From an uncultured Synechococcus sp. (GTDB lineage: Bacteria > Cyanobacteriota > Cyanobacteriia > PCC-6307 > Cyanobiaceae): 34,638 nucleotides of DNA. The notes below the pieces were generated by a model, which was not told where the DNA came from, searched no databases, and worked only from the letters and a program-made list of their open reading frames with translations. Numbering within the stretch: position 1 is the first letter of the stretch; every line of letters begins with the position of its first letter. This document shows, piece after piece, positions 6,132 through 28,860 of this stretch. Made by a program: the position numbers and the translations under genes. Where the stretch lies: assembly GCA_913042965.1 (NCBI GenBank), contig CAJWLE010000001.1, positions 1-34,638 of the forward strand, written 5' to 3'.

Positions 6132-7205
6132 TCAGACAGCAACAGCAGCCTTGGTATTCAAGGCACCCTTGGCGTAGAGGCCGGCGTAGTGGGTGATGCT
6201 CTGCTGCTTGATCTTGCTGGCGTTGCCAGCCGCCCAGAACTGCTGATAGCGATCGAGGCAGACCTGCTTCATGTACTTGCGGGCCGGCTTGTTGAAGTGG
6301 CGTGGATCAAAGTTGGCTGGGTCAGCCATGGCTGCTTCGCGCACCGCGGCAGTGAAGGCGAGTCGATTGTCGGTATCGATATTCACCTTGCGAACACCGT
6401 TGCGAATCCCTTCCTGGATCTCTTCCACGGGCACGCCGTAAGTCTCGGGGATTGCACCGCCATGCTTGTTGATCATCTCCAGCCACTCCTGGGGAACGGA
6501 GGAGGAACCATGCATCACCAGGTGGGTGTTGGGGATGGCTTTGTGGATCTCAGCAATACGGCTGATGGCCAGAACCTCACCGGTGGGCTTGCGGGTGAAC
6601 TTGTAGGCGCCGTGGCTGGTGCCGATAGCGATCGCCAACGCGTCGCATTTGGTTTTGGTGACGAAATCAGCGGCTTCAGCCGGATCGGTGAGGAGCATGT
6701 CCATGGACAGCTCACCTTCGAAACCATGGCCGTCCTCGGCCTCACCTTTGCCGGTCTCGAGTGAACCGAGGCAACCCAGTTCACCTTCAACGCTCACACC
6801 AACAGAGTGGGCGAAATCAACAACCTGTTTGGTGACGTTGACGTTGTACTCGTAACTGGCAGGGGTCTTGGCGTCGGCCTCCAGGGAGCCGTCCATCATC
6901 ACGGAGGTGAAACCGTTGATCGCTGCTGAATAACAGGTGTCCGGTGCATTGCCGTGGTCCTGATGCATCACCACGGGGATATGCGGATACGTTTCAGTCG
7001 CCGCGAGAATCAGGTGGCGAAGAAAGATCTCACCGGCATAGCTGCGTGCTCCACGCGAGGCCTGCAGAATCACCGGGCTGTCGGTCTCGTCAGCCGCTTC
7101 CATGATGGCCTGCACCTGCTCAAGGTTGTTCACATTGAAAGCAGGAATGCCATAGCCGTTTTCAGCGGCATGGTCGAGCAAAAGCCGAAGCGGAACGAGC
7201 GCCAT
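6132..7205 (-). CDS. fbaA: Fructose-bisphosphate aldolase class II (Calvin-cycle type)
   Basis: [55 protein letters not shown]. Confidence 0.97.
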
Positions 7206-7326
7206 AGGAAAAGTCCGATATAGAACCTGGACGGATGAGACTCCGCCGGGCGAAGACTTTACCTATTTGTGTTTAATTTGTCACCAAGCCCTGTCGCCCT
7301 CGCGACAAGGCCTGGTCAAAACGGAA

Positions 7327-8394
7327 TCAGTAGGTGTATCCAGCGACGAACAGCTGCTCATCAGATGATGGCTGGGAGCCAGGCACATACTGACCGAGTG
7401 AGGCTTCCGAATTGGCCTGAGCCCTTGCGAGAAGAGCCTTCTGACCAGCCTCAGTATTGGAACCAGCCCAGCCCTTGAGACATGAGTGCTGCAGAGCACG
7501 GCCATAGGAGAACCCGAGGTTCCACTTCGCTTTGCGCTCGATGCTGTTCATGTGGTTGAGGTACACCGAGGCGGCTTCCTCACTCAGGCCACCGGAGAGG
7601 AACACGATGCCAGGAACGCTGGCGGGAACGCTGCGCTCGAGAGTTCTCACCGTCATGGCTGCAACTTTGGCCGGGTCGGCCTTGTCGGCACAATCAGCGC
7701 CTTGAACAGTCATCGAAGGCTTCAACAGGGTGCCCTCAAGCAGAACACCGTTGGCATGGCAAGCGTGATACACCTCTTGAATCACATGCTCCTGAATACG
7801 AGCTGTGGTTTCGATGCTGTGGTTGCCATCCATCAGAATTTCGGGCTCCACGATGGGCACCAGGCCTGATTCCTGAACCGAACGTGCATAACGAGCCAGA
7901 CCCCAGGCATTTTCGCGAATCGAAAGCGCAGAGGGGCTGCCGTCAGAGGTGATTTGCAGAACAGCGCGCCACTTAGCGAAGCGTGCGCCTTGGGCGTAGT
8001 AATCGGCAGCGCGCTCAACCAATCCGTCCAGGCCGGTGCAGAGCGTTTCAACGGCATTGGCACCGCCCAGGGGCCTCAGACCCTTATCAACCTTGATGCC
8101 GGGAATGACGCCAAGCTTGCCCAGCTTGGTGACCATCGACTCACCGTCGGCATGGTTCTGAAACAGGGTCTCCTCATACAGGATGGCGCCACTGATGAAG
8201 TCACCTAAACCTGCTGCAGTGAACAGCATTCCTCTATAGGCTTGGCGGTTGGCCTCAGTGTTCTCAACGCCAATGGATCCGAGACGCTTGCCAATGGTCT
8301 TGGTCGATTCATCAACAGCGAGAATCCCTTTTCCAGGGGCCGCAAGCGCCTTCGCTGTGGCGATCAATTCTGAGCTGTAATCCGCCAAAGCCAT
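7327..8394 (-). CDS. Fructose-bisphosphate aldolase class I (eukaryote type)
   Basis: GKGILAVDES, GIKVDKG, FAKWR, VPIVEPEILMDG, LLKPSM (Schiff-base Lys), FLSGG, FSYGRALQ, C-terminal Tyr. Confidence 0.95.
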   Translation of the reverse strand: MALADYSSELIATAKALAAPGKGILAVDESTKTIGKRLGSIGVENTEANRQAYRGMLFTAAGLGDFISGAILYEETLFQNHADGESMVTKLGKLGVIPGIKVDKGLRPLGGANAVETLCTGLDGLVERAADYYAQGARFAKWRAVLQITSDGSPSALSIRENAWGLARYARSVQESGLVPIVEPEILMDGNHSIETTARIQEHVIQEVYHACHANGVLLEGTLLKPSMTVQGADCADKADPAKVAAMTVRTLERSVPASVPGIVFLSGGLSEEAASVYLNHMNSIERKAKWNLGFSYGRALQHSCLKGWAGSNTEAGQKALLARAQANSEASLGQYVPGSQPSSDEQLFVAGYTY

Positions 8395-9585: not shown

Positions 9586-9957
9586 TCAGCTGGCCAGTGG
9601 TTCGTTGCAGACGGCGTCAATCACCGAGCCGATCAACCCGTCTTCGCCGGCAGCCTCCCAGCTGGCGCCAAAGCGGGGGATGCCGTTCACCTGCTTATCG
9701 CGGTAGAGCTGCTGAGCACAGTCGAGCTGCATCACATACAGCTCACCGGGAGCCTGCTCGCCCTCGGACGTTGGAGCGGGCGTGAACCGGCTCAGAACTG
9801 AGCGCAAACCCTGCCGATCCTCCCGGACGCTGCCTCGGTCCCACCACTGCTGTCCGGCCTCCGTTGCTGGAACCTCAATCCAGTCAACCTGTCCGGCCCA
9901 GACGGGCAGGACCCAGGCCAGAAGGCTCAGACCCAGCATCAACACAACCCTGATCAT
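9586..9957 (-). CDS. Conserved exported hypothetical protein
   Basis: Signal peptide; [18 protein letters not shown]; Cys pair; coupled to the accD stop. Confidence 0.75.
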
Positions 9958-10835
9958 GCGCTGGCGAGCTCCATCGGCCTTGAGCCATGCAAACGCAACA
10001 GGCTGGCCAGGGTGACGCGCATCTGATTACGCGGAACGATGGTGTCAACAAAGCCCTTGTCCTGCAGATATTCAGCCGTCTGGAAGTCATCCGGCAGCTT
10101 TTCACGCAGGGTCTGTTCAATCACGCGACGCCCAGCGAAGCCGATCAACGCCTTGGGTTCCGCCAGGATCAAATCCCCCAACATGGCGAAGCTCGCCGTG
10201 ACACCCCCGGTGGTGGGATGCGTCAGAAGAGGCATGTAAAGCAACTCTGATTCCCTGTGGCGCTCCAGCGCACCGGAAATCTTGGCCATCTGCATCAAGC
10301 TGAGCATCCCCTCCTGCATGCGGGCACCACCGGACGCACAGACAATCAGCAGAGGCAAGCGTTTCTCCGTGGCCACCTCAATGAGTCGCGTGATCTTTTC
10401 CCCGACAACTGAGCCCATGGAGCCGCCCATGAAGCGGAAATCCATCACCGCCAGAGCCATCGACAGACCCTCCACCCGGCAGAGGCCCGTCACAACACCA
10501 TCATTCAGACCAGTGGATGCCTGGCTTTCAAGAAGACGATCGGCGTAGGCGCGGCGATCCTTGAAACCAAGGGGATCGGTGGGAGTGAGCTCCTCGTTCA
10601 GAGCTTCAAAACTGCCTGGATCGGCAATCACGGCGATGCGTTCGCTGCTGTTGATCCGGTGATGGTGACTGCAGCCGGCGCAGACACTGGCGTTGGCCCT
10701 CAGGTCTTTGAGATAGACCACCAAGCCACATTCAGGGCATTTGCTCCAAAGGCCATCACCTTCATCAGGTTCCTGGATCACCTTGCCGGTGGACTGTTCC
10801 TTGCGGCGGTCCGCAAACCAGTCGAACAAACTCAT
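9954..10835 (-). CDS. accD: Acetyl-CoA carboxylase carboxyltransferase beta subunit
   Basis: [16 protein letters not shown]...CAGC zinc finger, [33 protein letters not shown]. Confidence 0.97.
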
Positions 10836-11389
10836 GCGGTTTCCGCTCGTTGGGACAGTTTCGTTCTTGGGTGGCTCAGTGGTTCCTGAAGCAAGGCCGC
10901 CAAAAGGCCTCTTCACCTCAAATCAGATTCTCTTAATGGTACTTGTGTGGTCCGCAGGGCGATTGCCAGAAAACCCTTTGGTGCTTAGGGCGGGCAACCT
11001 GAATGGGGCCGCTTTGAGGCCTGAACACAGAGCGCCCAAAGACAGAGGGTTCAGGAGTGCATTCGACGCGGCTCAGCTTGCAGCCGATGGCGTCCAGGGG
11101 GCATAACCCGTGAATGACATCGATTTGTCTGTGCCCTTGCAACCTCTTTCACCGTTCCGTGAGAGAATGCAATGACGCGAATGGGCCGAGAGACCACGAC
11201 GCGCGATCTAGATAAACGGCCAGACCAAATGAACAGAAGAGTGATTCAACCCCTTCTTTGGGGGATAGATCAGCCCATGAGAGTGCACGGTGATCAGCGC
11301 AACGTTGAAACCGGTCACGAGTCGGCCCAACGGAAACGTTTCCTGCGCTCTGAGGCAGAGGACTCCGAGACAAGCGGAATCGTCTGATC

Positions 11390-11421
11390 AAAAAGAAACC
11401 CCCGCCAAAGGCAGGGGTCTC
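11390..11421 (-). terminator. Strong Rho-independent terminator on the minus strand
   Basis: Minus RNA GAGACCCCUGCC-UUU-GGCGGGGGUUUC-UUUUU: 12-bp stem, fully paired only on - (two G-U pairs), followed directly by U5. Confidence 0.85.
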
Positions 11422-11467
11422 AAAAATTCAAAAGGTTGTGACCTTGTTTCCAGCCTTTGAATTTTTT
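11422..11467 (+). terminator. Long AT-rich hairpin, possible plus-strand terminator
   Basis: AAAAATTCAAAAGGTTG...CAGCCTTTGAATTTTTT with a U-G pair on + and a T6 end; weak GC stem. Confidence 0.4.
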
Positions 11468-11469
11468 CC

Positions 11470-12265
11470 TCACATTCAAAATATAGATGGATTGACTGGC
11501 AAAGTTCCAGTTAGCCGTGGACAGCTTGTTGCTCGTCTACAGCCCCCTCTGCAGGTGGGGCGAACATGCCGGCCACCTGGTCAGGGAAAGGACTACAGAA
11601 ACCGCGAGAAGAGCTTGCTCTTCCCGAGCGATGCGGTGCCTGCCAAATCAAGTTCGTCCCTACACAGAGAAATGTGGATAACACACCGATTCTTTTCGGA
11701 TTTCAAAATCGCAGAACAGTGTTTCCCACGATCGCTCTCGCGGGAAACAGGGTTCTGCCGGCCCTCGGGTCGCTCTCCCGAAACCGTCGCGTATGGAGGG
11801 GATCCCCATCTCCGCGCCGCATCAATATGAAGGCCAACCAAGAGATTTGCAACCGGTCTTTTGGGCATCTTTTGGAACCCAAAAAATCCCCGTAAAGGCT
11901 CGTGTCTTTGGTATGGGAGAGCACTGAAAGAACCTGTCTGACATGGGTGGAAACCAGTTCAGACCAGACTTTTCAGACACATCTGTCAGTGACGTGGACA
12001 ACACCACGACTGTCTACGGTCCACACACGGTGCTACAGCCGCACCGGTTCAGTCGGACCCACCAAGCGTTCCTTGATTGCCCTCGATTCAAGGGTCTCAG
12101 ACAGCAAGCATTGAGAATCCGATCCTCCTAGTCCAAGGAACGAGCAAGGAGGCAAAGACGCTGCCCTCGGGAAAGACAGTGATCTCAACACAATCCAAGA
12201 CTCGCAAGGTTTGACCGGAAGATGTTGCGTGGATCCAAGCGAAACCCAGACAACAACTCGCAGAA
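11470..12265. ncRNA. Candidate large structured non-coding RNA (right block), strand unresolved
   Basis: Near-continuous stems: 11492-11514, 11517-11540, 11542-11561, 11605-11626, 11711-11758, 11765-11781, 11859-11884, 11938-11989, 12018-12059, 12071-12093, 12095-12116, 12124-12152; no protein-like ORF in six frames. Confidence 0.45.
11516..12019 (+). repeat. Two copies of CGTGGACA-N11-GTCTAC-R-G (11516-11542 and 11993-12019)
   Basis: Read directly: GTGGAC-agcttgttgctc-GTCTAC and GTGGAC-aacaccacgact-GTCTAC, both with a 12-nt spacer, 477 bp apart. Confidence 0.7.
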
Positions 12266-12406
12266 ATGATTTAATAATATTTTGAACCAAGAAAAATCAG
12301 CGCGTTCAAGCTGCAAATCCTTGCAAAACAATTGCGTCTAGACCACCAACCCATCAGCGCCACAACACGACCATTTTCTGAATCTGCAGCGCGCCCAAGA
12401 TCACTC

Positions 12407-12436
12407 TGATAAAATAGATCAATAAAAAGATTATTG
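12407..12436 (+). promoter_or_regulatory. AT-rich operator-like site upstream of ferritin
   Basis: TGATAAAATAGATCA (partial match to the Fur 7-1-7 box) overlapping the perfect inverted repeat CAATAA-N5-TTATTG, ending 10 bp before the ATG. Confidence 0.35.
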
Positions 12437-12445
12437 CCTAAATCA

Positions 12446-13009
12446 ATGGCATCACACACTGCCGCTATTAACGATCATCTTGCTCTGGAATTTCAGGCCA
12501 GCCACACTTACCTGGCTATGTCGATATGGCTTCGCGAAAAAGACCTCATCGGCTTTTCAGGCTACATGCTCGAAAAGAGTATTGAAGAACGCGGACATGC
12601 ATCAAAGATGATTGCCTATCTTGTCGACAGCGAATGCGAGGTACAACTACCAACCATTCAATCTCCGGAACGTGAGTTTCAAACGGTCCAAAAACTGTTT
12701 GACACCGTTTACAGCATGGAAAAACAGGTAACGGAATCAATCAACAATATTTATTCACGATCAGAACAGGAGGGCGACCGTGCCGCAACTGCAATGCTGG
12801 ACTGGTTCATCGAAGAACAAGTTAAAGAGGAATCCGAGGCGCGCTTTGTTCTGAAGCGATTGCGTTTGGCCGATTCCAACACTGCAGCACTGATCCTTCT
12901 TGATCAACAATTCCTGGATGGAACACTCCTTGCCAATATCAAAGCTGGAGGCGCATTTAACCTTGGGACAAGTGGAGGAGGCCAAGGACTTGGAAACGGA
13001 GTAGCTTGA
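12446..13009 (+). CDS. ftn: Non-heme ferritin
   Basis: LEFQASHTYLAM, EERGHA (ExxH), MEKQVT, LDWFIEEQVKEE ferroxidase-centre motifs; lower GC than flanking genes and opposite strand. Confidence 0.92.
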   Translation: MASHTAAINDHLALEFQASHTYLAMSIWLREKDLIGFSGYMLEKSIEERGHASKMIAYLVDSECEVQLPTIQSPEREFQTVQKLFDTVYSMEKQVTESINNIYSRSEQEGDRAATAMLDWFIEEQVKEESEARFVLKRLRLADSNTAALILLDQQFLDGTLLANIKAGGAFNLGTSGGGQGLGNGVA

Positions 13010-27489: not shown

Positions 27490-27699
27490 TCAATTGATTT
27501 TCGTGAATCCTGAAACAGACCATTCAATAAACTTAGACAACAATGCGATTCCAAAAACCCCAAAAAACCATGGCCAAGGCCTTATATTGTAACCAGTTTT
27601 TGCAACCTTAACTTCATTCTTCAGAAGGTCAAACTTAACTTCACTCAAACGCTTTTGCTCTTCGGGAGGCAGGGGATATGGATCCTTAAAACTTGCCAT
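27490..27699 (-). CDS. Small hypothetical membrane protein (69 aa)
   Basis: MASFKDPYPLPPEEQKRL... with TM segment WPWFFGVFGIALLSKFI; AGG upstream of the ATG; AT-rich. Confidence 0.55.
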   Translation of the reverse strand: MASFKDPYPLPPEEQKRLSEVKFDLLKNEVKVAKTGYNIRPWPWFFGVFGIALLSKFIEWSVSGFTKIN

Positions 27700-27930
27700 C
27701 CTGCCCTGTAAAACTCTCAAACACTTTACTATTAATTAAAACAGGTATGGAACGAAAGGCACGAAACATGGCATTTACACTCTCCATACCGATCAATAGA
27801 TACAAGACACACTCCTGAACCGTCTGATGATGAAGCTTCGATGACGGCTTATAGCGTTATCTAAATCAGACCCAAGGCCGAAGAATACATCCATGAGACA
27901 ACAAGAAAAAACAAAACAGGTACAGCCTTT

Positions 27931-28053
27931 TCATCCAAATCGCTCTTGCAGTGCCTCTTCTATTTTCATAAGTGCAGCAATTAACAGGTCCAAAGCAGTC
28001 CATCCTGCAGTCACTGCTCAACCGCCCAAGGCAAGCAAAAGAAATCGTTGAAT
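27931..28053 (-). pseudogene. Possible decayed small-protein gene
   Basis: Frame reads IQRFLLLALGG*AVTAGWTALDLLIAALMKIEEALQERFG* with an internal TGA at 28018-28020 and no clear start. Confidence 0.25.
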
Positions 28054-28386
28054 TTAATTCAAAAGCAACCAAAGCCGACCGCCGACTCGATGAAGGCTCG
28101 AGCCCAGTCGAAGTTCCAACACACCACATCGACTCTCAAAACAAATGAATCAATTCAGAATTAACGCGTTTTTACCTTCATTCAGAATGGGATTCAAGAA
28201 GGATCCAAGGCGTTGAAGTCGTTGGCAACTGAATCATCGATGTGTCTTCTTCATCACCTGTTTGCACTTCAGGGTTTGAAAGGACGGTGCCGTTAACCGA
28301 TAGAGACGCCCAAAAATCTTACGTTTCAACACAGGCCACCACTGAGCTGGGAACATCTCCAGAATGCAATCAGTTCCCGTTCAATC

Positions 28387-28860
28387 ATGGTTCTGCAGCT
28401 TTCGGTGTCCGATGTGATGACCCAGCCTTTGCTGAGCGTCACCCCGGAAACACCCCTGCAGGAGGCCGTTCAATTGATCAACGACCACCACGTGAGCGGG
28501 CTGCCGGTGGTGGATGCTCAGGGGAGCCTGATCGGGGAGCTGAGCGAACAGGATTTGATGGTGCGGGAAAGCGGAGTGGATGCAGGCCCCTACGTGATGC
28601 TTCTCGACAGCGTGATTTACCTGCGCAATCCCTTGAACTGGGATCGCCAGGTGCATCAGGTGCTGGGAACAAGCGTGAACGACCTGATGCGTAAGGACGT
28701 GCACAGCTGCCAGGGAGATCTCCCGCTGCCCAAGGCCGCATCTCTTCTGCACGAACGTGGCACTCAGCGGCTGTTCGTGCTCGATACTGCAAAAAAACCG
28801 GTCGGCGTCGTCACCCGGGGCGACGTGGTGCGCGCCCTCGCTTCCCATGGGCAGGTGTGA
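28387..28860 (+). CDS. CBS domain pair protein
   Basis: VSDVMT, SGLPVVD, GELSEQDL, LDSVIYLRNP, GVVTRGDVVR. Confidence 0.92.
   Translation: MVLQLSVSDVMTQPLLSVTPETPLQEAVQLINDHHVSGLPVVDAQGSLIGELSEQDLMVRESGVDAGPYVMLLDSVIYLRNPLNWDRQVHQVLGTSVNDLMRKDVHSCQGDLPLPKAASLLHERGTQRLFVLDTAKKPVGVVTRGDVVRALASHGQV

Follow-up and report, generated by a model that had tools for sequence, protein, structure and literature searches.

The region between accD and the ferritin gene (10945-12265) very probably contains three small genes, which code for a 52-aa protein, a Yfr2-family sRNA and a Cyano-2 RNA, and not one large RNA. The window, that is, the whole stretch of 34,638 nucleotides that was analysed, comes from a marine Synechococcus-type genome, as judged from its gene content and two RNA families. 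An earlier note on this DNA had seen no protein-like ORF in the region and had proposed an undescribed structured ncRNA. The first statement is contradicted by the conserved 52-aa gene, and Rfam already covers 11418-11479 (Cyano-1/Yfr2) and 11588-11788 (Cyano-2); what stands of the structured ncRNA is two known families of approximately 80 and 285 nt, not one long RNA. The genes are new members of three families, to which we add predicted ends for the Cyano-2 RNA, an NtcA-type box upstream of it and a proposed loop-bulge contact within it. In one Synechococcus clade the islet separates accD from ferritin/pilD, and each of the three genes is likely transcribed from its own promoter.

Table 1. 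Features of the region and its neighbours. Positions are those of the window; a dot marks features given without strand.
Feature	Positions	Strand	Remarks
accD	9954..10835	-	left neighbour, core gene; TIGR00515 over cut-off
accD/small-gene spacer	10945..11150	.	between divergent starts; without conserved structure
5′ leader of small gene	11175..11228	+	predicted start 11175; 54 nt
52-aa protein gene (P0001)	11229..11387	+	Syn_n046 family; conserved frame
Yfr2-family sRNA	11390..11473	-	RF01701, 43.3 bits, cut-off 41
Yfr2 intrinsic terminator	11395-11421	-	within the sRNA unit
Yfr2 promoter (putative)	11480..11513	-	-10 TATATT 11480-11485; CGRE1-like palindrome 11493-11513
Cyano-2 RNA, predicted full unit	11535..11817	-	approximately 285 nt; 60-copy conservation profile
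P3 bulge AUCGCUC	11626..11632	-	near-invariant
Loop 2 GAGCGAU	11731..11737	-	present in most copies; like loop 1, complementary to P3 bulge
Loop 1 GAGCGA	11770..11775	-	invariant; complementary to P3 bulge
Cyano-2 promoter (putative)	11824..11852	-	-35 TTGCAA 11847-11852, 17 nt, -10 CATATT 11824-11829
Phased T/A tracts	11859..11884	.	upstream of -35; TTTTGGG/CCCAAAA arms of the earlier note
NtcA-type (CRP-family) box GTG-N8-TAC	11911..11924	.	95 nt upstream of -10
Cyano-2 promoter/ferritin spacer	11926..12445	.	without conserved structure
Ferritin	12446..13009	+	right neighbour; PF00210

Cyano-2 Is a Multi-Copy RNA With Covarying Helices

The Cyano-2 copy of the window matches RF01702 over the full model (1-204) with 174.7 bits against a cut-off of 40, on the same strand and with the same P1-P3 structure. 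Neighbourhoods of 70 loci were collected, of which 10 were dropped because the anchor pattern failed, leaving 60 copies. Relative to the 204 nt of the Rfam model, the conserved unit is longer by approximately 30 nt at the 5′ side and 50 nt at the 3′ side. The family is over cut-off in 27 of 51 genomes of the genus, with up to six such copies, and in none of the 140 other family genomes searched; viral contigs gave no exact match to one search pattern. A second copy in the same genome lies at G000:C54:279-479.

After 13 close copies had been left out by hand, 47 of the 60 were used for covariation. Two-sided changes were found in 29 of the 36 predicted pairs, and 94% of helix positions are paired compared with 40-49% in slid controls; helices P1-P3 are kept by compensatory change. 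The 3′ hairpin, which reaches approximately 11537, shows two-sided change in two of its five pairs. The two best hairpins of the earlier note (11711-11758 and 11605-11626) correspond to Cyano-2 helices P2 and P3, seen from the opposite strand. A peptide inside Cyano-2 is ruled out by the lack of a conserved frame: no start-stop pair is common to more than 7 of the 47 copies, and the frames from the conserved GUG run for 3-53 codons.

Identity with Yfr103 is likewise ruled out. Yfr103 is, like Cyano-2, a multi-copy ncRNA of marine Synechococcus (290-328 nt), but the two are separate entries in Table S2 of PMC5069720, where Yfr103 has other coordinates and far higher expression.

Complementary Loops and Bulge in Cyano-2

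Among 18 conserved hexamers, the two loops and the P3 bulge form the only complementary pairs. Loop 1 is 100% paired with UCGCUC of the bulge in 47/47 copies, with one G-C changed to G-U in three, and for loop 2 91.5% of the cells are paired. We consider a pairing of these segments somewhat favoured by the sequences: the GAGCGA loop would likely pair with the UCGCUC bulge, either as an intramolecular pseudoknot or as a kiss between two molecules. For comparison, 110 pattern matches in metagenomes were reduced to 48 distinct copies. The contact is put forward as a proposal, since neither the 47 genome copies nor the 48 metagenome copies contain a two-sided change in this helix, and 4 of the 48 break one pair without compensation.

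The same lack of compensation speaks for a different reading, in which loops and bulge are protein-binding or trans-pairing sites, as in a CsrB-like or base-pairing sRNA, and not partners of each other. That loop 2 repeats loop 1 also fits this reading; repeated loops are likewise a trait of protein-titrating RNAs. The complementarity is however exact over 6-7 nt and lies between the sole invariant unpaired segments, and the changes in genome copies retain a G-U pair, which leaves separate sites as a possibility to be taken seriously, though hardly an even one. A description of the motif reportedly mentions GCGA loops and finds the kilobase upstream empty. Neither the loop-bulge complementarity nor the upstream box described below appears in the accessible alignment parts and figure text of PMC2864571.

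Predicted Promoter of Cyano-2 and an NtcA-Type Box

A strict sigma-70 scan found no promoter in the region, and the promoters of both Cyano-2 and Yfr2 come from comparison. The -10 of Cyano-2 reads CATATT in 35/60 copies and CATCAT in 8, with a -35 of TGC type. By analogy with Yfr2 paralogues, several of which carry CATATT 6 nt before GUGAGG, the Cyano-2 start is predicted at 11817. In 40 dereplicated copies, from 56 with a recognised -10, the 130 nt on the upstream side show no folding (mean z -0.47), in contrast to the first 130 nt on the downstream side (-3.29). No U-tract terminator is present at Cyano-2. Cyano-2 is probably a stand-alone, multi-copy RNA of approximately 285 nt transcribed from a sigma-70-type promoter.

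T- and A-tracts are conserved at a fixed distance from the -10. The TTTTGGG/CCCAAAA arms, read as a hairpin before, are likely a DNA element; phased A-tracts would bend the DNA between the box and the promoter. A TGATCGACG-type motif occurs in 14/60 Cyano-2 loci (e.g., L031, L032, L037, and L113), often ahead of the P3 anchor by approximately 350-400 nt, and is absent at the locus of the window; it is possibly the site of a second factor.

Searching for GT(A/G)-N8-TAC at 75-110 nt from the -10 revealed a strict box in 28/60 copies and a relaxed one in 43/60, with chance expectations of 0.003 and 0.024 per copy, respectively; since the copies are kin, these counts overstate independence. The strict boxes lie at 92-95 nt in 26/60 copies and at 81 nt, about one helical turn closer, in two more. 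Metagenome copies with a -10 and enough flank show the same spacing, with the box at 94-95 nt in 18/38 and at 81 nt in 2. The ends of the box are kept and the spacer is variable in a profile that was anchored on the best box and is hence inflated. GTA-N8-TAC and GTG-N8-TAC are the commonest forms, the window carrying the GTG variant.

Marine NtcA sites have GTA-N8-TAC as their published consensus (PMC3037559), and in the genome of the window a site of this type is located just before ntcA (C2:7322-7335). We regard control of Cyano-2 by NtcA as fairly probable on this evidence. NtcA would likely activate Cyano-2 under nitrogen limitation from the box approximately 100 bp upstream. Should the box be that of NtcA, Cyano-2 would be a nitrogen-stress RNA maintained in up to six copies by an abundant marine phototroph. 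Among the titles listed on NtcA and on marine Synechococcus ncRNAs in the openly accessible literature, none concerns Cyano-2.

The three units could be right and the box be bound by another factor of the CRP family, responding for instance to phosphate or carbon status. The genome encodes a second CRP-family regulator besides ntcA (G000:C175:2095-2622), several copies read GTG-N8-CAC, and GTA-N8-GAC variants occur as well. At about -100, the box is distant for a class I activator working alone. The commonest forms nevertheless agree with the marine NtcA consensus, and we think another factor the less likely reading, though a realistic one.

Possible Action of Cyano-2

The genes downstream of Cyano-2 vary between subfamilies, which argues against Cyano-2 being the leader of a neighbour gene. 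Cyano-2 would instead likely be a trans-acting RNA that serves as a folded scaffold or binds protein. The family has been without assigned function since 2010 (PMC2864571, Weinberg et al., 2010), which in the openly accessible literature was the only description of Cyano-2/RF01702 found, and it is near-silent in one in-situ data set.

GOLLD, ROOL and OLE (PMC12286853) and manA (bioRxiv 10.64898/2026.07.01.735769) form, according to the accessible parts of these sources, RNA-only multimers via kissing loops. Since such multimers are known, we keep, at long odds, the idea that Cyano-2, as a genus-specific RNA of approximately 285 nt under induction by NtcA, would form RNA-only multimers, for which each molecule would provide a pair of GAGCGA loops and a single UCGCUC bulge. 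Copies of Cyano-2, including paralogues of one cell, could then form chains or rings during nitrogen starvation. The only principle possibly common to Cyano-2 and these RNAs is conserved loop-loop pairing that joins RNA copies; Cyano-2 differs from them in having no sequence or model match, in being far shorter and in that its proposed kiss shows no covariation.

RNA Library Contigs Across the Predicted Start

Contigs of eight RNA-library runs, out of 21 listed, were compared with the region; strand and ends are unreadable in these, and DNA may be present. In 5/8 runs contigs cross the predicted start at 11817, by 90-200 nt: X1 covers 11624-11957, X5 reaches 11909, X6 covers 11703-11998 and X14 11753-12022, and the crossing piece of X2 is paralogue-like. 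X1 has a further piece at 12012-12192. X7 covers only 11532-11825, which matches the predicted Cyano-2 unit. None of the contig pieces listed for the eight runs spans the whole region. Stretches that lacked contig cover in one or the other set of runs (10972-11105 and 12040-12700, respectively) carry no weight. For the two Cyano-2 copies listed in Red Sea data, the summed reads are 5 and 1, and neither copy has a TSS.

These contigs, extending to 11909-12022 and with the additional X1 piece, might reflect one minus-strand primary transcript of approximately 500-900 nt, which would run from upstream of 12000 through Cyano-2 and perhaps Yfr2 and be processed later. The missing U-tract terminator and the tandem arrangement of Cyano-2 and Yfr2 would agree with it. 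Yet contigs without strand or ends could not distinguish such a transcript, X7 stops close to the predicted start, the upstream sequence neither folds nor is conserved, and the tandem order with Yfr2 is confined to this clade; we consider a long precursor improbable and prefer separate transcription of Cyano-2 from its own predicted promoter.

The Yfr2-Family sRNA

The Cyano-1 match is on the minus strand, as is that of Cyano-2, and lies approximately 2 bits over the cut-off. The RNA has the signature of the known family, with a GUGAGGA 5′ end, a GGAAACAAGG loop (11442-11451) and a terminator. Its start is taken as the G of GUGAGGA, following the TSS of Yfr2c. The CGRE1-like site is a degenerate 21-nt palindrome that was matched to the text description of the motif alone (PMC6191309), and it lies at -20 to -40, whereas in the family it usually starts at -55.

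According to the available parts of two reports, in Prochlorococcus MED4 the family is induced under high light and when nitrogen is limiting (PMC6191309, PMC6778093), and it binds Yfr1/Yfr10, the latter shown for MED4 (PMC6778093). By analogy with MED4, the Yfr2 RNA described here likely sponges Yfr1/Yfr10, and it may respond to nitrogen via the CGRE1-like site (PMC6191309).

The 52-aa Protein Gene and Its Leader

For the small gene 25 of 30 loci were compared, leaving out two near-identical relatives and three 3′-only matches. The ATG is kept in 25/25 homologues and 24/25 have a length of 45-60 aa. All 26 gaps in the alignment are multiples of three, and differences amount to 0.30/0.32/0.57 by codon position. 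Frame, start, stop and motifs are conserved as in the Syn_n046 small proteins. The protein belongs to no Pfam or PHROG family and has no Atlas match above 0.84; only 15 close homologues were found. Longer ORFs at 11438-11830, 11566-11895 and 12033-12290 were rejected because of overlap with the RNAs or frameshifts in relatives.

With Syn_n046 of Synechococcus CC9605 the protein shares the N-terminal RR..PLL.G and ESAQRKRF.RSE motifs, a similar size (52 vs 54 aa) and the leader length. The two differ in a divergent central linker, and the gene of the window is convergent on Yfr2. Tables S2/S3 of PMC5069720 place the Syn_n046 TSS 53 nt ahead of its ATG, and in CC9605 this TSS is reported to rank with the most active ones in situ (PMC5069720). 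The leader is more conserved than the coding sequence (mean majority fraction 0.86 vs 0.74 in 25 loci). Rfam gives no match to the leader; it is possibly an unlisted cis-regulatory element. The same genome contains a second small-gene copy (G000:C150:2177-2267).

Folding Excess Is Confined to the Two Known RNAs

The minimum free energy of 10945-12265 was compared with 30 dinucleotide shuffles on each strand, a check that the earlier note had proposed. The whole region is more stable than the shuffles (z -3.9 on the plus and -5.5 on the minus strand), and it has 30 perfect stems of at least 5 bp compared with 20.3±4.1, a number reached by 1/100 shuffles. The excess is real, but it sits only in the two known RNAs: z is -3.5 for Yfr2 (minus) and -4.0 for Cyano-2, compared with -0.8/-1.2 for 10945-11174 and -0.3/-1.2 for 11931-12265. 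Windows of 120 nt show the same distribution. All hairpin arms quoted previously are present at their positions, and the count of more than 20 hairpins is correct, but it equals chance (29 on the plus and 32 on the minus strand vs 27.9±2.9 and 27.1±3.2 in shuffles). The other hairpins are promoter palindromes or chance.

The Rfam scan at E<=10 gave 15 matches, among which only Cyano-2 and Cyano-1/Yfr2 are over cut-off. The weak ones (SmY, mir-190, PyrR, leaders) do not reach it; they coincide with the terminator or arise by chance. The earlier note had placed the RNA in the size class of GOLLD/ROOL/OLE; none of these is among the matches, the structure of the flanks is not conserved and the modules are rearranged elsewhere. 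A tRNA/tmRNA search found none, in agreement with that note.

Flanks and Module Order

The left spacer differs by 13-19% and five indels in four close relatives, and the right one by 10-18% with indels that are not multiples of three. Divergence of the flanks is 10-19% in these relatives, compared with 5-11% at third codon positions and 1-3% in the Cyano-2 promoter; both flanks change at or above third-codon rates. The GGTCC/GGACC stem is broken in 4/4 relatives and the CGGTGC/GCACCG stem in 2/4, in each case without compensation, so that of the compensatory changes expected in homologues those in the Cyano-2 helices were found and those in these two right-flank stems were not. Against the flank being a spacer counts the CCTTGA/TCAAGG stem of the right flank, which is intact in 5/5 close relatives. 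No real homologue of the right spacer was found in the 401 family genomes searched. Matches to 12028-12080 in three genomes are chance matches inside a coding gene that, by our own reading of its translation, is Mur-ligase-like. A Fur box before ferritin was rejected: it agrees with a Fur consensus at 12/19 positions, yet 16 such sites occur in the window.

The whole region is present only in four close relatives, with 87-89% identity over the full length. By BLAST it falls into blocks that recur separately in 31/60 other genomes, all of the same genus. Of the 60 Cyano-2 copies, 11 have the small gene and 10 have Yfr2 within approximately 1.5 kb. With the four orthologues of this locus set aside, Yfr2 lies on the strand opposite to Cyano-2 in 6/6 and the small gene upstream of Cyano-2 in 7/7, both unlike the window; the tandem order of Cyano-2 and Yfr2 is found in this clade only. 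The modules are arranged independently of each other. The idea that a single undescribed large ornate RNA fills all 1.3 kb, as the whole-region z on the minus strand and the full-length identity in four close relatives might suggest, has next to no probability, given a protein gene inside on the opposite strand, two predicted promoters and a terminator within the region, flanks at neutral rate and a shuffled module order.

Locus Setting

The ferritin gene is followed 3′ by a prepilin peptidase gene and then prkB. Of 30 genus loci compared around accD, 17 have pilD immediately before accD; the gap between the two contains ferritin alone in 2, a small-gene islet in 6 and other or unseen content in 5. 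The gap between accD and pilD is a small insertion hotspot.

Elsewhere in the window, 27500-28500 has a low GC content (0.41-0.49) and few long ORFs, and genes for class II and class I fructose-bisphosphate aldolase adjoin at 6132-8394.
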